Below, piece after piece: positions 11,129 through 18,056 of a DNA stretch of 33,652 nt. The stretch spans positions 1 through 33,652 of the forward strand of contig JALGVI010000029.1 of NCBI GenBank assembly GCA_029838215.1, given 5' to 3'. Below the pieces are notes generated by a model. It saw nothing but the letters and a program-made list of their open reading frames with translations, ran no database searches and was not told the DNA's origin. The stretch comes from Candidatus Helarchaeota archaeon (GTDB lineage Archaea > Asgardarchaeota > Lokiarchaeia > Helarchaeales > RDOG01). Both the position numbers and the translations under genes were made by a program. Every line of letters starts with the position of its first letter. Positions within the stretch are counted from its first letter, which is position 1.

Positions 11129-12184
11129 TCATTTAATTCCAAAAACTTTTTTTATTTTTCGTGCAAACTTCTCAGGATCGTGAAAAATTAAGTAAGAATA
11201 GCAAAACTTGGGAAGAAACCACGTATCATTTACCGTCGGACCCGGATTGTAATTAGGTCTCGTGAGAATTGAGAAATTGATGTTGAAATATTTTTGATTT
11301 TCAGCAAGTGGACCAAAAAAGAGAATGAAGTTAAATGCGTTTCTTTTCATTTTGGCATAAAGTTTTAAGATTTTCACGATTTCTGATGCAAGAGCCGTGA
11401 TGTCATTCTCGTTTAGAGAATCGAGGTTCTTTTTTTCACAAATTCCCTGAATTTCATAATTACCGCGCGGTGCATATGGAACCATCCAATGGAAGCTTCC
11501 TTGCTGTTCAATATATCTTTCACTTTTTGCTTCCAACTTGATGAGTTCATCCCAAAAATTTAATTCATGTTTCTCGTAAAACTCCTTGCTCTTCGAGCTG
11601 ATGATTTCCAAATAAGGAAACGAAAGAGTGGAAAGAATGACCTGAGCGTGAGGATGAAAAATGGAAGACCCTGCCGTCCCTAAATAATTCACACCAATAC
11701 AGGCGTGATTTACAGTATTATCTATATTTTTCACTATTTTTATATAGTCTATTCCATTTAACAAGGCATCTGCAATGAGTTCGGGCGTGAATTCTCCAAT
11801 TTTCGTGAAGTGTGTTCCCGGATCAAACACGATCACCGACGAGTAACATGTAAAGGAAAACAAATTCGGAAATTGGACGCTTTTTCCTTTTTTCATCCGT
11901 CCTTCTGGAAAAATTGAATTAGGAAATTTAGAGGCTGAGCTTTCTAAATTGTCGGAACAAAAGAAACAACTATGACTCGTCTTTTCGATCATTTCATCAA
12001 GGAATGCTTCATTTGGCTTTCGATATAATAAATCACGTTTTGTCGTGAGGCTTTCAGGCAAGATCGAAAACTCACCCGTGAGAGGGTGTTCTCGATAATG
12101 AATGACCTGTTCTTCCTCCTTGAAATCTTTATAAGGACTTAAAACACGGGCTGTTTCCGTGTATTCTCTTAATTGAATGACCAT
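11129..12184 (-). CDS. galT: Galactose-1-phosphate uridylyltransferase-like HIT protein
   Basis: YREHPLTG, CFFC, PNLF, GSSIFHPHAQ (HxHxQ), VPYAPRG. Substrate uncertain. Confidence 0.72.
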   Translation of the reverse strand: MVIQLREYTETARVLSPYKDFKEEEQVIHYREHPLTGEFSILPESLTTKRDLLYRKPNEAFLDEMIEKTSHSCFFCSDNLESSASKFPNSIFPEGRMKKGKSVQFPNLFSFTCYSSVIVFDPGTHFTKIGEFTPELIADALLNGIDYIKIVKNIDNTVNHACIGVNYLGTAGSSIFHPHAQVILSTLSFPYLEIISSKSKEFYEKHELNFWDELIKLEAKSERYIEQQGSFHWMVPYAPRGNYEIQGICEKKNLDSLNENDITALASEIVKILKLYAKMKRNAFNFILFFGPLAENQKYFNINFSILTRPNYNPGPTVNDTWFLPKFCYSYLIFHDPEKFARKIKKVFGIK

Positions 12185-12275
12185 TAAAGGAACCTCAAGA
12201 CTTTTCTATCATCATCAAACGGCTTTTTTTTTATTCTAAAATAAATATATTTGATTTTTTTTAAATTCGATTTTT

Positions 12276-12287
12276 TGCAAGCTTGCA
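12276..12287. promoter_or_regulatory. Palindrome TGCAAGCTTGCA, candidate operator (core CAAGCTTG)
   Basis: Perfect 12-bp palindrome in the divergent galT/ACAD intergenic region; the core recurs at 12338 and 16121. Confidence 0.4.
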
Positions 12288-12337
12288 CGTTTTAATCATA
12301 AAATCTGATTCAGCCGGAATTTGGCAAGTACGCCTAA

Positions 12338-12345
12338 CAAGCTTG
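12338..12345. promoter_or_regulatory. Second CAAGCTTG copy
   Basis: ACAAGCTTGCA, 60 bp from the first copy. Confidence 0.35.
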
Positions 12346-12519
12346 CATTTTTCGAAATTTCGGTTTCCTTCTTTCTGTTCTTTACAAGGATTTTAAGACG
12401 AGATATTGAAATCTCATTCTAATTTATTCGCAATATCGTGGTTTCGGTTTAAACACTTAGAGAAGTGGGAAAAAAAAATCTTTTTATTAAATTTTTAAAG
12501 ATTTAAATTATCTTTTTTG

Positions 12520-12539
12520 ATTTAAAACCGGTTTTAAAT
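12520..12539. promoter_or_regulatory. Perfect 20-bp palindrome ATTTAAAACCGGTTTTAAAT upstream of the ACAD gene
   Basis: Read directly; ends 60 nt before ATG 12600 and contains TATA-like TTTAAA arms. Confidence 0.5.
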
Positions 12540-12599
12540 TCAAGGAATATGCCCCGATAGGGCAATTTGAAAAAAAAAATATTACATGGTGAGAAAAAA

Positions 12600-14168
12600 A
12601 TGGTAGAAACATTCTTTTTCTGGACTGATGAACAGAAAGAATTTGCCAAACGAGTTAATAAGTTTGCAGACGATCATGTCGAAGAAGCAGAAATGGCTCA
12701 TGCCGAAAAACGATTTCCCTGGGAAGTCATGAAAAAAGTCGGCGAAGAAGGCTTCATGGGTGCAGGAGTCCCAAAGGAATATGGTGGTCTTGATTTAGGT
12801 GCAACAGGAAGTTGCATTGTCGCAGAAGCTCTTGGACGCTTGTATGCTGTTGGACACGTGTTTGTCGTCAGCATGTTAGGTGGCTTGCATCAATATCTCA
12901 AATTTGCTGATGAAGAAACGAAGAAGAAATACCTCGGACAAATTGCAGAAGGCAAGGTTCTGGGTGCCGTTTGTATTACAGAACCCTTTGCCGGTTCTGA
13001 TGCAGCAAATGTATATACGACTGCTGTAAAAGAAGGAGACGAGTGGGTCATTAACGGTAAAAAACGCATGGTCACGGGTGTTGGTGCTGCCGGACGTTAC
13101 TTCGTATATGTAAAAACGAGTGATGATCCTACTGATCGAAAGCAATACAAGCATCTTACCGCCTTTACAATCGACAGGGGTACAAAAGGTTTCACGTTGG
13201 AAAAAATTAATGATCTGGTTGGTTTTGATAACGTGCCAAACGGATATCTGGATTTTGATAACGTGCGTATTCCTGATTCACAACGAGTCGGAGAAGTGGG
13301 TCAAGGATGGCAGGTCATGATGTCCGGTTTAAACTTCGAGCGTTTAATCGGTGCGGCCGTCGTTGGTGGTGGATTTGAGGATATCATCAAGATGCTCCGC
13401 CATTATATGGAACGACGCGTGCAATTCAATCAAACCGTCAATCGATTTACGAATCTACAATTTGATTTTGCTGATATCATTGCAAAATGGAGAATCTCTC
13501 GACTGATCAGCTATTACACAGCCTACTTGCTTGATCACCAGAAAGATCTAAAACTCTCCGAATTTGACACGGGATGCTGGGCAAGTATTGCAAAGCTTTA
13601 CAATACGGTTTCTGCTCGCGAAGTAGGAAGCTCTGCAGTCCAAATCATGGGCGGAGATGGTTTGACTCGATTCTATCCAACCGAACGCCTGATTCGAGAA
13701 GCCAAGATCGGTGAAATCGTAGCAGGAACGACCGAAGTTCAAAAAATGTTGATCTATCGATTATCATTAGCAAAGAAAGGATTCGCCGAAATGACGCACT
13801 ACCTTAAACTCCATCCAACTCTTGACTTCCCAATTCCAACGAATGCACCATCCGAGTGGGAAGGAATGGAGATCAATAAGGAGAACGTCATGAAACTAAT
13901 GGCAAAAGACTTCAAGACAAATCCTGGATTATACATGAAACCTGAAGATATCAAATTCCTGACGAAAGGAAAACGCAAGGCCATTCACCAAGTTCTCGAA
14001 GAACTCGAGAAAGAAGGCAAGATCACGGTCATGCGCGGTCGTGACGGCAAGATAAAATTGGCAAAGGCAACCTACGTTGGTCTAAAGATCTATCCAAAAG
14101 AATTCTATCGATACTTCCCCGATTGGGCGAAAGAAGACGAATTCATGATGGAAATGACCAAATTTTAA
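12600..14168 (+). CDS. Acyl-CoA dehydrogenase (isovaleryl-CoA dehydrogenase-like catalytic arrangement) with about 130-aa C-terminal extension
   Basis: CITEPFAGSDA, WVINGKKRMVT, GLNFERL (catalytic Glu at the IVD/LCAD position), RVQF, QIMGGDG, EIVAGTTEV; GGTGAG before ATG 12600. Confidence 0.92.
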   Translation: MVETFFFWTDEQKEFAKRVNKFADDHVEEAEMAHAEKRFPWEVMKKVGEEGFMGAGVPKEYGGLDLGATGSCIVAEALGRLYAVGHVFVVSMLGGLHQYLKFADEETKKKYLGQIAEGKVLGAVCITEPFAGSDAANVYTTAVKEGDEWVINGKKRMVTGVGAAGRYFVYVKTSDDPTDRKQYKHLTAFTIDRGTKGFTLEKINDLVGFDNVPNGYLDFDNVRIPDSQRVGEVGQGWQVMMSGLNFERLIGAAVVGGGFEDIIKMLRHYMERRVQFNQTVNRFTNLQFDFADIIAKWRISRLISYYTAYLLDHQKDLKLSEFDTGCWASIAKLYNTVSAREVGSSAVQIMGGDGLTRFYPTERLIREAKIGEIVAGTTEVQKMLIYRLSLAKKGFAEMTHYLKLHPTLDFPIPTNAPSEWEGMEINKENVMKLMAKDFKTNPGLYMKPEDIKFLTKGKRKAIHQVLEELEKEGKITVMRGRDGKIKLAKATYVGLKIYPKEFYRYFPDWAKEDEFMMEMTKF

Positions 14169-14203: not shown

Positions 14204-16042
14204 TTAAACAAAAATTAATCCATCCAATTTGATGAAATCCTTAGTTCGAACATCCCATGTCTTTCTTCTAATCGTTTCATCTTGCATCTCATTCATCAAA
14301 GTAAGCCGCTTAATTCGTTCATCAAGGGTTTTTGGCAATTCTTGCTTAAATTCGATAAATCTTGGAATCATGTAATAAGGAAGAACTTGAACCAAATAGT
14401 TATACAAGTCGTCATATTTTAGAGAACCATCTGTTTTCAACACCACGCAAAGTTTAATCTCATCATCTGATGCTTGTTCTTTTTTCAAACCGATCGCGGC
14501 ACTTTCAAGAACAAATGGATGTGCATTTACGACTTTTTCTATTTCGTGAGGAGAAAAAATTTTATCATGTCTACGAATTATCGTTTCTTCTTGCCCTATG
14601 ATGTAAAAAAAGCCATCTTTATCTTTATAACCCAAATTTCCTGTACGGACCCAGTTAGAACCCCTATATTTTTTCTTTTTATCTCCCGAAAATCTATAGA
14701 ATTCCAGTGAAATCGGTAATGTTGATCTCGAGATGATTTCTCCAACATTATCTGAACCTGGTTCTAACTCCTTCCCATCAGAATTAACTATTTTCAATTC
14801 AAAGCCATTAATTGGTTTTCCGACTGAACCAATTTTTCCGCCTTTTGAGCCCTTTTTATTGATCGTGACAGTGCTACCATTTAAAAAGGGCCATCCTTCA
14901 TAAATTGGAATGTTAAATCTATTTTCAAAAATTTCCCACAATTCCTTTGGAGCCTCTGACCCAAATGCGCCTTTAATTGAATGTTTCTTATCCGTTTCTT
15001 TTACCGGCTCGTTCAATAGTTTTAACAAAACTCCTTTATTATAACAAATGAGATTTGCACCATGTTCTCTAACTTCCTGCCAAAAAATTGAAGCATTGAA
15101 TTCTCTTGTTATGATTATGGATGAATCATGAAATAAACTCGGTAGGATCACGAAAATCTGCGTGAATATAATAAAAAGCGGGAAGGGACAATAAACAATT
15201 ACGGGCTTAAGATCCTGAATTTGTAGCAATTCATTTTTAATGATTAATCCTGCAAGAACCGCATGATTCCTCAACAAAATTCCTTTCGGTTTTCCGATGC
15301 TTCCCGAAGTATAAAGGATTTGCATTTTGTGCCAGTCTTTGACCTTAACATCTGGATTTTTTGTAATGCTCGTGTTGATTTCTTGGAAGTCTATCATTTT
15401 ATTGTTAAATTTGAACCCTTTTGGAGCATTATGTACTATTATCTTCTTAATTTCGGGTAGTTTTTTTTGAATTCGCTTATATTTTTCGAGAAATTCATGT
15501 TCTAAGATCAAAATTTTAATACGGCTATGACTTAAAATATATTCCAATAAGTCATCATCCAGCAAGTAATTTACCGGAACAAAGGTACAACCGGCTTTTA
15601 TTATGCCAAACTCACAGTAAATAAAGTCTAGACTATTTGGAAGCATCAAGGCCACATTACTTCTTCCAAATCCGAGCCTTTTGATCAAGCTTAAGAGTCC
15701 ATTTGCGATTCTGTTTGAATTCTCATTAAGTTTCTTGTAGGTGACTTTCTTATCTCGAAAATAGATAAAAACATGGTTCGGTTCTTTCAGTGCTTTTTTT
15801 TCTAATATTTTTGGCAGTGTTGCATTCTGTAATCCGTGTTCCTTTATCAAATCAACGATTCCGATCTTTTTAGTTAGAAACAAGCCATTGCTCCTTATTT
15901 CAATGTTGATTTCCTCTTGATCTGTAAAAGGGAAGGAATTGTCTTTAAATATCTTGCTTGATACATATATCCATCCATTCTTATATTTCCCGTTACCTGA
16001 TTTCTTTACTATGAATTTTCCTTTTCCGATGATGTTTGTCAT
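14204..16042 (-). CDS. AbrB-like domain fused to a CaiC-like acyl-CoA synthetase fold with degenerate catalytic motifs (probable pseudoenzyme)
   Basis: AMP-binding scaffold (VALMLPNS, YTSGSIGKPKG, GSVGKP, GEI, PYYMIPRFIEF, LPKT) with the A4, A5, A7, A8 and A10 motifs altered. The N-terminal 60 aa show an AbrB-like pattern. Ribosome site AGGAGA before the ATG. Confidence 0.85.
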   Translation of the reverse strand: MTNIIGKGKFIVKKSGNGKYKNGWIYVSSKIFKDNSFPFTDQEEINIEIRSNGLFLTKKIGIVDLIKEHGLQNATLPKILEKKALKEPNHVFIYFRDKKVTYKKLNENSNRIANGLLSLIKRLGFGRSNVALMLPNSLDFIYCEFGIIKAGCTFVPVNYLLDDDLLEYILSHSRIKILILEHEFLEKYKRIQKKLPEIKKIIVHNAPKGFKFNNKMIDFQEINTSITKNPDVKVKDWHKMQILYTSGSIGKPKGILLRNHAVLAGLIIKNELLQIQDLKPVIVYCPFPLFIIFTQIFVILPSLFHDSSIIITREFNASIFWQEVREHGANLICYNKGVLLKLLNEPVKETDKKHSIKGAFGSEAPKELWEIFENRFNIPIYEGWPFLNGSTVTINKKGSKGGKIGSVGKPINGFELKIVNSDGKELEPGSDNVGEIISRSTLPISLEFYRFSGDKKKKYRGSNWVRTGNLGYKDKDGFFYIIGQEETIIRRHDKIFSPHEIEKVVNAHPFVLESAAIGLKKEQASDDEIKLCVVLKTDGSLKYDDLYNYLVQVLPYYMIPRFIEFKQELPKTLDERIKRLTLMNEMQDETIRRKTWDVRTKDFIKLDGLIFV

Positions 16043-16120
16043 TTTATCTCCTATATGAAATTATCATTAATAATATCAATGAAAATGATGAATTCTAATC
16101 TAATACTTACTATTTTTCAG

Positions 16121-16128
16121 CAAGCTTG
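16121..16128. promoter_or_regulatory. Third CAAGCTTG copy, between the divergent pseudo-ligase and hydrolase genes
   Basis: GCAAGCTTGA at 16120-16129. Confidence 0.35.
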
Positions 16129-16178: not shown

Positions 16179-18056
16179 TTGACTTTCAAGTCACCTTACT
16201 ACAGTAATCATTACTACCAAATCGGAATATTTAAAAATATAGGTGCCCTACTCGCGACTGTTTTCTTAAAGCTCCTGCTTTATTACGAGGTGGTAAAAAT
16301 CGTATCAAAAAAAGTAAAACTCTTGCTATTACTAATTTTTCTGGGTCTAACGCTAACTGGCGTTATCGGTTTAAATTTTTTTCCTGCGAACATCTTAAGA
16401 ACGACACACTACGTTGTTAGAAATGACGGACAGGCAATAGTCTCTTATAATCTATACCAACCGATCGGAATTACTGAGCCTAGACCGGTAATCGTGATGG
16501 GGCACGGCATTATCGTAAGTAAAGAGATGATGACATCTTTTGCGATAGAATTAGCATGGAGAGGGTACATCGTCGTAAATTTGGACTGGTGCGGTCATGG
16601 TCAAACCATTGGAAGCTTAACCGTCTCGGGTCTGGTGAGTGATTTAGAATCAGTTCTTGCCGATATTCCAAATACTGCTCCCATGGCAAACATGTCTGAA
16701 ATCGCCCTTATTGGATATTCCATGGGTGGAATTGCAACTTATGACATTGCAGCTAATAATTCAAATATAAAGGCGTGGGTCGGCGTGGGAACCGCACCAA
16801 ATGATTTTATATCAAACACGAGCAATCCGAAAAATGTTTTGTTGATAATTGGATTGTATGATCAAGTCTTCAGCCCTCTTGAAGTCATACGGCAATCAAT
16901 GGTAAATTTGACGGGAACTCCGGGCGTCGCAGACTTTCAATACGAAGTGTTATATGGCAATATTGCTGATGGAACCGCAAGGCGATTTCACGTCGTCCCT
17001 ACGTCTGAACATCTAATGGTGCCTTGGCATCGAGACTTCATTTCAACGACCACGGATTGGATCGTCCAAACGTTCGACGGCGTGAAGCCAAGTCTCACGA
17101 TTACTGCATATGATGTCAGGTTTGCTTTTCTCATCATCGGTGTTTCTGGATTTACGGGTTTGGCTTTCGTTTCTGCATTACTTCTTGCAGATAAGTTCCG
17201 CATTAGAAAAGAAGAATCTCAAAGATCACAGGAAGAGTGTCTGATTTTAAGGGTGGAAGACATCGAAGCCACGTCTGCGCGATCCTTTATCCTGAAATAC
17301 TACGTGCATGCTTTTCTCTTGATACCTACGATTCTGGTTTTCGCCGTTCTCTTCTTAGTTCCATTACTGTTCTCCGCGTTACTAGGTGCACTTTTTGGTT
17401 GCTTGGGAATAAATATTCTAATATTTTGCTGGCGATTGACAAAAAAGTCAAATCGATCCATCAAGTCGATATTCAAGGAAAATTTGTTCCAAGAACCAAA
17501 AATATGGCTGTATTCCGTGATTCTCACTTCAATATTTTTCTTCGGTTATTATTCCACTATCGGACTTAATTATCTTGGATTTGTCTCATCGCTGCAAAGA
17601 ATTCCATTCGTCATTCTATATTGCTTCTTGGCTTTCGTGCTATTCTTCATCATTTTCGTTTTCCTTCAGAAAGCCCTGGTGCCGTTATTGGATGAAAAAC
17701 TAAAAATCAAGAATACTTCGGTTAAATACATTGCGACATCCTTGATCAACTTTTTGCTGATATATTCGTGGTTCCTTCCTGTAGTTCTCATTCCCTGCAT
17801 TATAATGAACGATTATTTCGTTGCATTGATCTTAGTTTTTCTATTCCCCATCATTTTATCTTTGGCTTTCTTCAGCACATATATCGAAAAATTAACCGGT
17901 TCCGTGATACCCTCTGTACTGATTTCAGCTTTGGTCTTGGGTTTTCTAATGACTGCAATGTCGCCTCTCATCATCGACCCACTTGGAACTTTAGTAGATG
18001 CTCTTGCTTGGGCAGAGTCAAGAGGTCTGATCAACTTCGCCTTCCTAATATTTTAA
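16179..18056 (+). CDS. Membrane-bound alpha/beta hydrolase (N-terminal anchor, hydrolase domain, multi-pass C-terminal domain); start probably near GTG 16290
   Basis: VMGHG oxyanion region, GYSMGG nucleophile, GLYDQ (Asp), SEHL (His); many hydrophobic segments after about residue 310. Confidence 0.8.
   Translation: MTFKSPYYSNHYYQIGIFKNIGALLATVFLKLLLYYEVVKIVSKKVKLLLLLIFLGLTLTGVIGLNFFPANILRTTHYVVRNDGQAIVSYNLYQPIGITEPRPVIVMGHGIIVSKEMMTSFAIELAWRGYIVVNLDWCGHGQTIGSLTVSGLVSDLESVLADIPNTAPMANMSEIALIGYSMGGIATYDIAANNSNIKAWVGVGTAPNDFISNTSNPKNVLLIIGLYDQVFSPLEVIRQSMVNLTGTPGVADFQYEVLYGNIADGTARRFHVVPTSEHLMVPWHRDFISTTTDWIVQTFDGVKPSLTITAYDVRFAFLIIGVSGFTGLAFVSALLLADKFRIRKEESQRSQEECLILRVEDIEATSARSFILKYYVHAFLLIPTILVFAVLFLVPLLFSALLGALFGCLGINILIFCWRLTKKSNRSIKSIFKENLFQEPKIWLYSVILTSIFFFGYYSTIGLNYLGFVSSLQRIPFVILYCFLAFVLFFIIFVFLQKALVPLLDEKLKIKNTSVKYIATSLINFLLIYSWFLPVVLIPCIIMNDYFVALILVFLFPIILSLAFFSTYIEKLTGSVIPSVLISALVLGFLMTAMSPLIIDPLGTLVDALAWAESRGLINFAFLIF

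Follow-up and report, generated by a model that had tools for sequence, protein, structure and literature searches.

An intact gene of an Asgard archaeon joins a small N-terminal domain, predicted to be of the AbrB DNA-binding type, to an acyl-CoA-synthetase body that has lost its ATP-binding residues. The gene belongs to an archaeal family for which we found no literature, and 15 of 18 family genes from different genomes carry the same palindrome upstream, which suggests self-controlled gene regulators built from a metabolic enzyme. The analyzed stretch (the window) is 33,652 nucleotides of a Candidatus Helarchaeota archaeon (GCA_029838215.1, contig JALGVI010000029.1). The initial annotation of an intact ORF with altered motifs of the ANL superfamily was correct in every reading, whereas its interpretation, a DNA-binding regulator with a catalytically dead ligase as the sensor, was only partly supported.

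Architecture of the ORF and the predicted N-terminal domain

The ORF (P0001) is translated without stops, and the sequence GGAG at 16048-16051 lies 5 nt before the ATG. Its parts are as follows.
14204-16042 (minus strand), complete ORF of 612 amino acids, stop codon included.
15866-16030 (minus), N-terminal domain, residues 5-59, predicted to be an AbrB-type swapped hairpin.
15806-15865 (minus), helical linker, residues 60-79, with helices 62-69 and 76-86 in the full-length model.
14633-15805 (minus), ANL (AMP-binding) large N-terminal subdomain, residues 80-470.
14273-14632 (minus), ANL small C-terminal subdomain, residues 471-590.
15281-15313 (minus), altered P-loop YTSGSIGKPKG, residues 244-254, with Ile249 in place of Thr.
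14879-14899 (minus), A5 motif EGWPFLN, residues 382-388, with Asn388 in place of Glu.
14636-14638 (minus), codon AAT, Asn469 in place of the A7 Asp of TGD.
14564-14593 (minus), degenerate A8 hinge motif QEETIIRRHD, residues 484-493 (Arg to Gln, Asp to Thr, and Gly to Asp).
14315-14317 (minus), codon CGA, Arg576 (in LPKTLDER) at the position of the A10 catalytic Lys.

The A4 motif reads PLFI (residues 288-291). The ligase body is a genuine member of the ANL superfamily: Pfam gave AMP-binding (PF00501) on residues 80-440 (E 1.7e-52, 179 bits against a cut-off of 29.9) and AMP-binding_C (PF13193) on residues 500-572 (E 2.7e-9, 38.3 bits against 24.5). The full-length model matched 4wv3 (Foldseek E 5e-40, TM 0.82 normalised to 4wv3), and it sits in the adenylate-forming conformation (rmsd about 4 Å to 4wv3, 4g36, and 5bsm, against about 10 Å to thioester-state structures). 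CaiC-like/PRK06155-type acyl-CoA ligases are the best NCBIfam and nearest sequence neighbors, but the scores were far below the curated equivalog cut-offs of the CaiC, PRK06155, and FadD families, the best being 257.6 against 722 bits (NF004808) and 254.9 against 476 bits (NF004837).

The AF2 model of residues 1-72 (pLDDT 77) showed a β-β-α-β-β topology (β 8-15, β 20-27, helix 29-32, β 45-50, and β 53-58), as proposed by the initial annotation. A VIA-align search against 48,161 chains gave only 10 hits with Z ≥ 2 (5itj, 3zvk, 7xi6, 5k8j, 2w1t, 1yfb, 9h6a, 6ifm, 2mrn, and 6nkl). All ten are swapped-hairpin DNA binders of the AbrB/SpoVT/MazE/VapB/Sso7c4/C56 types, several of them solved bound to DNA, but the Z scores are low (2.1-3.8; rmsd 2.0-7.5 Å, 44-58 residues aligned). 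The top rows of Foldseek were VapB, MazE, SpoVT, and AbrB, but with E > 0.6, and a search of the ESM Atlas gave MazE, PrlF, and SymE clusters at TM 0.50-0.53. The domain is predicted to form an interleaved homodimer, with an ipSAE of 0.53 against 0.00 for the best control, a mark that was reached in calibration by 20 of 30 proteins solved as pairs of one chain and by 1 of 23 solved as single chains. The runs agreed in at least 95% of contacts with pLDDT of at least 68. The contacts interleave all four strands: residues 8-10 pair with 43-47, and 24-27 and 54-56 pair with themselves across the interface. Similar complexes have been solved, and the result may therefore reflect likeness. The domain is net basic (11 Lys + Arg against 5 Asp + Glu).

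At the sequence level, Pfam scans of residues 1-75 and 1-100 gave nothing relevant and no hit to AbrB/MazE even at E 10, and profile searches of the PDB with the N-domain alignments gave only chance-level rows. One of 29 family N-domains hit PF04014 at E 0.051. A profile of the domain found 511 proteins, mostly stand-alone archaeal proteins of 55-90 amino acids, of which 23 of 63 touched PF04014 weakly (best E 9e-4). An hhalign comparison with the bona fide PF04014 domains of this genome gave a probability of 80% (E 1.4e-5), in register. A D-S-x-F-P-F signature and a long first hairpin mark a separate subfamily. The loci of two stand-alone homologs were short contigs with small unknown ORFs and no toxin genes.

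Family conservation and loss of ATP-site residues in this copy

P0001 belongs to a family of about 30-50 proteins of the same architecture in Promethearchaeota, Thorarchaeota, and Bathyarchaeota, and the same genome holds a sister paralog (P0002). The 28 full-length homologs at 40-52% identity share the N-domain, which is as conserved as the ligase body (mean pairwise identity 0.55 against 0.50).

The pseudoenzyme claim needs to be divided. The whole family lacks the A10 lysine and has a loose A8 motif: Arg576 of P0001 aligns with the catalytic Lys of Escherichia coli CaiC, no family member has Lys at this position, and 18 of 29 have a non-basic residue there. Arg also occurs at this position in three of four out-group ligases, and the A10 change alone is thus weak evidence. 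On the other hand, the P-loop Thr, the A5 Glu, and the A7 Asp are kept for ATP/Mg binding in 28 of 28 family members, four of four out-group ligases, and CaiC, and only this copy has lost them (T249I, E388N, and D469N). Lys579 is kept in 26 of 28 members. The retention of canonical motifs by close homologs had been named beforehand as a sign of a decaying copy, and this condition is half fulfilled: the sister paralog and all 27 other homologs keep these three residues, and "catalytically dead" is therefore a trait of this copy and not of the family.

Nevertheless, P0001 does not appear to be decaying. Its terminal branch (0.48) is equal to that of its sister (0.47), and pN is 0.29 against a saturated pS of 0.80 between the paralogs. 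The 612-codon frame is open although about 5.5% of point changes would create a stop. No ortholog closer than 52% was found in the protein database or in 41 related genomes, and, with saturated synonymous sites, dN/dS cannot be computed for this copy. In a search of sequencing runs, no RNA run was listed, and only one DNA run held a small share of the sampled words.

A palindrome upstream of the family genes

The following elements lie upstream of the P0001 gene.
16196-16207 (no strand), TTACTACAGTAA, the only exact TTAC-N4-GTAA palindrome in the window, 165 nt upstream of the ATG in the region shared with the divergent hydrolase gene; a candidate operator of family type with a perfect core and non-consensus flanks.
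16211-16221 (minus), TTTGGTAGTAA, next to the palindrome; the same TTTGGTNGTAA element lies 31 nt upstream of the ATG of the paralog and occurs 18 times in the genome on both strands.
16121-16128 (no strand), CAAGCTTG palindrome, about 80 nt upstream of the ATG; a separate candidate site.

The palindrome TTAC-N4-GTAA was found within 220 nt upstream of 15 of 18 family genes, usually at -22 to -36, including 7 of 8 regions examined after the motif was defined. The family consensus is TTTTAC-K-N2-M-GTAAAA (a consensus form is TTTTACTTTAGTAAAA). The background is 0.015 per 220 bp in the same loci and 0.0018 in this genome, which has 30 such sites in 3.6 Mb. No site was found in 20 upstream regions of ligase genes lacking the N-domain, whereas the palindrome tracks the N-domain-bearing genes across at least six deep clades. 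Every hit of at least 19 bits with the position weight matrix in about 100 kb of loci is intergenic, including sites before the adjacent DUF2284/B12-binding/RACo operon and in a divergent ABC-transporter promoter. However, the site of P0001 itself is atypical. In addition to its position at -165, it scores 6.9 bits on a 20-nt matrix whose training sites score 18.5-23.8, and it may lie inside the hydrolase ORF if that gene starts at TTG 16179. The paralog has only a two-mismatch version of the site.

The CAAGCTTG palindrome occurs three times in the window, all intergenic, against 0.47 expected, and the other two copies lie upstream of the acyl-CoA dehydrogenase (ACAD) gene. It is not near the paralog and is only mildly enriched in noncoding DNA genome-wide (17 of 91 hits in 12.6% of the sequence), and it is not assigned to P0001.

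The neighboring genes are as initially annotated: an ACAD at 12567-14168 (plus strand, convergent) and an alpha/beta hydrolase with a hydrophobic N terminus starting at 16179 (plus, divergent). The proposal that they form a lipid or acyl catabolism regulon of P0001 has little support, because the gene context varies across the family and no family-type site, even with one mismatch, lies upstream of the ACAD gene.

Proposed role and alternative explanations

Here, we propose, with moderate confidence, that P0001 is a noncatalytic member of an undescribed archaeal family of one-component DNA-binding regulators. In this view, two N-terminal swapped-hairpin domains interleave into an AbrB-type dimer, which would bind the short palindrome overlapping or adjoining the core promoter, and the ANL body would act as the signal-sensing module that changes DNA binding. 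In most family members the ATP site is intact, so the signal may be ATP, AMP, or an acyl-adenylate. This copy would have replaced three ATP/Mg ligands after duplication, and it most likely neither adenylates nor binds ATP normally. It may act as a regulator that ignores nucleotide, or one that senses only the acid or CoA. Against this reading, the strict conservation of the ATP site in the rest of the family suggests real chemistry there, and the family may consist of enzymes that also regulate. The architecture, the fold class, the predicted dimer, the family conservation, the motif losses, the absence of gene decay, and the family-specific palindrome are shown by the computational analyses, whereas DNA binding itself, the recognition of that palindrome by this protein, the repression of transcription, the regulon, and the modulation by a ligand (for which the initial annotation had suggested a fatty acid, CoA, acyl-CoA, or nucleotide) are inferred.

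It is possible, although less likely, that the swapped-hairpin domain is only a dimerization or partner-binding module and that P0001 is a noncatalytic scaffold or regulatory subunit, for example, a heterodimer partner of P0002, with the palindrome read by another factor. The dimer prediction says nothing about DNA, two paralogs with the same N-domain coexist in one genome, and the site of P0001 is atypical. However, the palindrome follows the N-domain-bearing genes and is absent before ligase genes without it, the domain is strongly basic, and the ten structural matches are all AbrB/MazE-type proteins. A bifunctional enzyme–repressor of the BirA type, in which the ligase body still makes an acyl-adenylate as co-repressor and this copy keeps weak activity through compensating residues, is unlikely. 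The retention of the P-loop Thr, the A5 Glu, and the A7 Asp in the family, the retention of Lys579, and the adenylate-forming conformation of the model are consistent with this, but P0001 lacks all three ATP/Mg ligands as well as the A8 Arg, Asp, and Gly, and no family member has the A10 Lys.

An ordinary active acyl-CoA synthetase with an unusual N-terminal extension and tolerated motif variants is still less likely. The ANL profile and fold matches are strong, and genes of acyl-CoA metabolism (thiolase, enoyl-CoA hydratase, ACAD, and other ligases) are frequent neighbors in the family, but invariant residues are lost, the scores fall far below every equivalog cut-off, and the genome has about ten canonical ligases. 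A duplicate on its way to becoming a pseudogene is very unlikely. P0001 has the most departures from conserved family positions (18 against 9 for its sister) and a GC content lower than that of the genome (33.9% against 38.6%). However, its N-domain has only two departures, its frame is intact, its terminal branch equals that of its sister, and a ribosome-binding site is present. As a more speculative and improbable possibility, the family may be an Asgard/Bathyarchaeota-specific class of adenylating repressors in which an acyl-adenylate made or bound by the ligase body acts as co-repressor, in the manner of BirA, and controls its own gene, corrinoid/RACo operons, and transporters, and P0001 would be a ligand-blind paralog that forms mixed dimers with its active sister and tunes that response.

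SpoVT of Bacillus subtilis (PDB ID: 2w1t) has a swapped-hairpin N-domain, as is predicted for P0001 (Z 3.2, rmsd 2.4 Å, 46 residues aligned), followed in the same chain by a larger sensor-type domain, but that domain is GAF, whereas the module here is a 530-residue ANL fold in an archaeal protein without detectable sequence similarity to SpoVT. The AbrB, MazE, and VapB antitoxin domains (PF04014; 1yfb, 2mrn, 3zvk, and 5k8j) and archaeal Sso7c4 (5itj) and C56 (7xi6) share with P0001 the predicted topology, the predicted interleaved homodimer, the basic charge, and a palindromic candidate site near its own promoter, although an atypical one in P0001, as with autoregulating antitoxins, but P0001 does not reach PF04014 directly, and no toxin gene is adjacent at its locus or at the family loci examined. 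Compared with the CaiC-like ligases, both ANL subdomains are present and the fold is intact in the model, but the ATP-site, A8, and A10 residues are replaced and an N-terminal DNA-binding-type domain has been added. BirA, the biotin protein ligase and bio-operon repressor, resembles the proposed regulator in concept, because an adenylate-forming enzyme body is fused to an N-terminal DNA-binding domain and its ligand state controls operator binding. However, BirA has an unrelated fold (class II aaRS-like with a winged helix) and is a fully active enzyme, whereas this copy has lost its ATP ligands.

Literature searches found no description of an AbrB–ANL fusion, and no regulator in any organism is known to us that uses an ANL fold as its sensor. 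Transcription control in Asgard archaea is almost unstudied, and this family gives a concrete case with a defined protein, a candidate operator of 12-16 bp, and candidate target operons. It also provides a natural pair in one genome, one copy with an intact ATP site and the other without it, and their comparison could show how an enzyme becomes a pure sensor. If the corrinoid/RACo link holds, the family could reveal how these sediment archaea switch on methyl-transfer or acid-utilization pathways.

Predicted fold of the N-terminal domain and the family that shares it

The features of the window referred to in this section and the following ones are listed below.
14204-16042, minus strand: ORF encoding 612 residues without a stop, with GGAG lying 5 nt before the ATG
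14636-14638: codon AAT of the altered TGN motif
16196-16207: TTACTACAGTAA, the strict TTAC-N4-GTAA match of the window
16179-16291: region containing the two alternative starts of the divergent alpha/beta-hydrolase gene
12278-12285, 12338-12345 and 16121-16128: three copies of the palindrome (G)CAAGCTTG(C)
12185-12566: AT-rich intergenic region upstream of the acyl-CoA dehydrogenase (ACAD) gene

The initial annotation held as an observation: all of its motif readings in the ORF (YTSGSIGKPKG, PLFI, EGWPFLN, TGN, GQEETIIRRHD and LPKTLDER) are correct. Pfam places AMP-binding on residues 80-440 (E 1.7e-52) and AMP-binding_C on residues 500-572. The nearest NCBIfam models are CaiC/PRK06155-like ligases, but the scores are far below their cut-offs, for example 257.6 against 722 bits. 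Ras-family GTPase and flotillin genes lie nearby in this Asgard archaeal window, and the closest homologs are labelled Promethearchaeota or Thorarchaeota.

Residues 1-75 have no Pfam hit. An AF2 model built on 29 family N-termini (pLDDT 77) consists of beta 8-15, beta 20-27, helix 29-32, beta 45-50 and beta 53-58, followed by a helix. An exhaustive structural comparison against 48,161 chains returned only ten chains with Z ≥ 2, and all ten are swapped-hairpin proteins: Sso7c4 (5itj), VapB (3zvk, 5k8j, 9h6a, 6ifm and 6nkl), C56 (7xi6), SpoVT (2w1t), AbrB (1yfb) and MazE (2mrn). The Z scores (2.1-3.8) are low, as expected for half of an obligate dimeric barrel, and the evidence lies in the exclusivity of the list rather than in the scores. 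Foldseek ranked the same proteins first, but with E > 0.6. A search of the ESM Atlas added MazE, PrlF and SymE clusters at a TM score of about 0.5, together with three clusters of stand-alone archaeal proteins of about 68 aa at TM 0.66-0.73. When two copies of the domain were folded together, the prediction passed the mark of the method, with an ipSAE of 0.53 against 0.00 for the best of three controls, agreement between runs in at least 95% of contacts and pLDDT of at least 68. Strand 8-10 pairs with residues 43-47 of the other chain, whereas strands 24-27 and 54-56 pair with themselves, which is the interleaved AbrB arrangement. Because similar complexes have been solved, this result shows likeness and is not proof.

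A profile of the domain searched against 1.84 billion proteins found 511 hits, most of which are stand-alone proteins of 55-90 aa. Of 63 of these, 23 touch PF04014 weakly and 5 touch SymE. A profile-profile comparison with the PF04014 domains of the window's own genome gave 80% probability, in register. We conclude that the domain is a divergent subfamily of the AbrB/MazE superfamily, marked by a nearly invariant D-S-x-F-P-F signature. Hundreds of stand-alone archaeal proteins of 55-90 aa (among them the database proteins P0126, P0133 and P0136-P0269) share the domain and this signature, and the two gene contexts examined (loci L032 and L033) are short contigs full of small unknown ORFs, possibly mobile elements or viruses. 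One database protein of 222 aa (P0130) joins the same domain to a Sigma-54 DNA-binding domain (PF04552, E 1e-44), which is odd for an archaeal domain and may be an assembly chimera.

About 30 proteins of 600-620 aa cover 97-99% of the query at 40-52% identity, whereas the next hits, at 33% identity or less, lack the N-domain. An ESM Atlas cluster of 52 archaeal members has the same shape. Among 41 related genomes, full-length members were found in about nine. The genome of the window holds a second member, the paralog P0002, at positions 26273-28090 of contig C109. In a tree of the ligase part, the two are sisters (SH-aLRT 99) with terminal branches of 0.48 for the query and 0.47 for P0002.

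Residue losses in the ligase body

Column counts separate two layers of change. Across the family, the A10 position is never Lys: counting the query, it is Arg in 11, Leu in 11, Phe in 3, Met in 2, Ala in 1 and Glu in 1. Escherichia coli CaiC has the canonical Gly-Lys at the position aligned with Arg576, but three of four out-group ligases also have Arg there, so that this item alone is weak. The A8 Arg, Asp and Gly are variable in the family, whereas the four out-group ligases keep them. In contrast, the P-loop Thr, the A5 Glu and the A7 Asp are kept in 28 of 28 members.

The window's copy alone replaces all three of these ATP-site residues (T249I, E388N and D469N), and also carries G391T. 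It has 18 departures from positions that are at least 90% conserved, against 9 in its sister, and only 2 of the 18 are in the N-domain. The copy is not decaying: its branch length equals that of its sister, pN is 0.29 against a saturated pS of 0.80, and the frame is open although 5.5% of point changes would give a stop. The GC content of the gene is 33.9%, against 38.8% for the paralog and 38.6% for the genome. The full-length model (pLDDT 87) is a normal ANL fold in the adenylate-forming pose. The pseudoenzyme label of the initial annotation therefore fits this paralog, whereas the family as a whole looks like ATP-binding proteins with relaxed catalytic residues in the C-terminal subdomain.

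A palindrome upstream of family genes

The 220 nt upstream of ten family genes from different assemblies were aligned by eye, and a recurring inverted repeat, TTAC-N4-GTAA, often in the form TTTTACT-N2-AGTAAAA, was seen. Eight further upstream regions were then retrieved as a hold-out set. The strict pattern occurs in 15 of 18 regions, including 7 of the 8 hold-out regions, and is usually located at -22 to -36 from the ATG. The background is 7 hits in 99.7 kb of the same loci, and three of those 7 lie 50-63 nt upstream of the adjacent DUF2284/B12-binding/RACo operon. The 3.6-Mb genome of the window has 30 hits in total, nearly all of them inside the open reading frames listed. Twenty upstream regions (10.6 kb) of ligase genes without the N-domain, from the same genomes, have none. 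With a 20-nt matrix built without the query, every hit of at least 19 bits in nine loci is intergenic, and the hits lie before the family gene, before the corrinoid operon, in a divergent ABC-transporter promoter and in one gene-free gap. At locus L030, a family-type palindrome scoring 19.3 bits (11971-11990) lies in the divergent promoter region between an SBP_bac_5 substrate-binding protein gene and an ABC permease operon, 4 kb from the family gene. Since the motif occurs in at least six deep clades of the tree, shared ancestry of neighbouring DNA cannot explain it. A short palindrome at a fixed position before genes that encode a predicted dimeric DNA-binding fold is the classic signature of autoregulation, although it does not prove that this protein is the binder.

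The window has exactly one strict match, TTACTACAGTAA at 16196-16207, which lies 165 nt upstream of the ATG in the region shared with the divergent hydrolase gene. Its core is a perfect palindrome, but its flanks are not the T-rich/A-rich consensus, and it scores 6.9 bits against 18.5-23.8 bits for the training sites. The start of the hydrolase gene is ambiguous. The longest ORF begins at TTG 16179, with no ATG in the first 100 codons, and the site would then be inside that ORF; GTG 16289 would give a typical N-terminus with basic residues followed by a hydrophobic stretch, and the site would be 82 nt upstream of it. The choice decides whether the palindrome is coding or promoter DNA. Next to it lies TTTGGTAGTAA. 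The same TTTGGTNGTAA element lies 31 nt before the ATG of the paralog, and the genome has 18 copies counting both strands. The third-best matrix hit in the genome (TTTAATTTAGTAAAA, contig C82:19671-19690, equivalent to 1672-1691 of the extracted locus L063) lies at -37 to -22 before a canonical 668-aa AMP-binding ligase gene (C82:19708-21714), which is a candidate regulon member. These are leads found after the fact, and for this particular copy the operator evidence is moderate.

A different palindrome, (G)CAAGCTTG(C), occurs three times in the window, against 0.47 expected. All three copies are in the two intergenic regions that flank the convergent ACAD/ANL pair, and two of them are 60 bp apart. 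A similar trio (positions 2658, 2719 and 2797) lies in a gene-free stretch of contig C1 of the same genome, and there is no copy near the paralog. The intergenic region upstream of the ACAD gene is unusually long (382 bp) and AT-rich, and holds several direct and inverted repeats and poly-A/T runs, with no ORF listed in it.

Gene context and proposed role

Neighbours differ among family members. Three loci, which carry the family members P0014, P0010 and P0007, follow a DUF2284/B12-binding/RACo operon. One member lies among ligase, thiolase, FAD-oxidase and enoate-reductase genes, one is divergent from a Liv-type ABC transporter, and others lie beside enoyl-CoA hydratase, thiolases or further ligases. 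The ACAD beside the query is convergent and has no family-type site. The lipid regulon suggested by the initial annotation is therefore not supported beyond loose association.

The closest architecture is that of SpoVT, in which an AbrB N-domain is joined to a sensor domain. The closest logic is that of BirA, an adenylating enzyme that is also a repressor, and the closest sequences are CaiC-like ligases. No description of an AbrB-ANL fusion was found in the literature library searched. Here, we propose that the protein is a one-component regulator with a sensor derived from an enzyme. The initial interpretation is partly supported: it is strengthened by the palindrome, but is corrected on the scope of the pseudoenzyme claim and on the proposed regulon. 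The domain order, the conservation within the family, the residue losses of this copy and the distribution of the palindrome were established by the sequence analysis, and the swapped-hairpin fold and its dimer are structure predictions, whereas DNA binding by this protein and a sensing role of its ligase body are inferred. We consider the regulator model for this copy more likely than not, with moderate confidence.

In three genomes, the family-type palindrome (L026:2051-2062, L029:2103-2114 and L031:2164-2175, in the respective loci) also lies 50-63 nt upstream of an operon for DUF2284, a B12-binding corrinoid protein and a RACo activator immediately before the family gene. In the genome of the window, the paralog P0002 is tail-to-tail with an ORF whose start looks like a RACo ferredoxin domain. 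This suggests a link between this putative regulator family and corrinoid-dependent methyl transfer.
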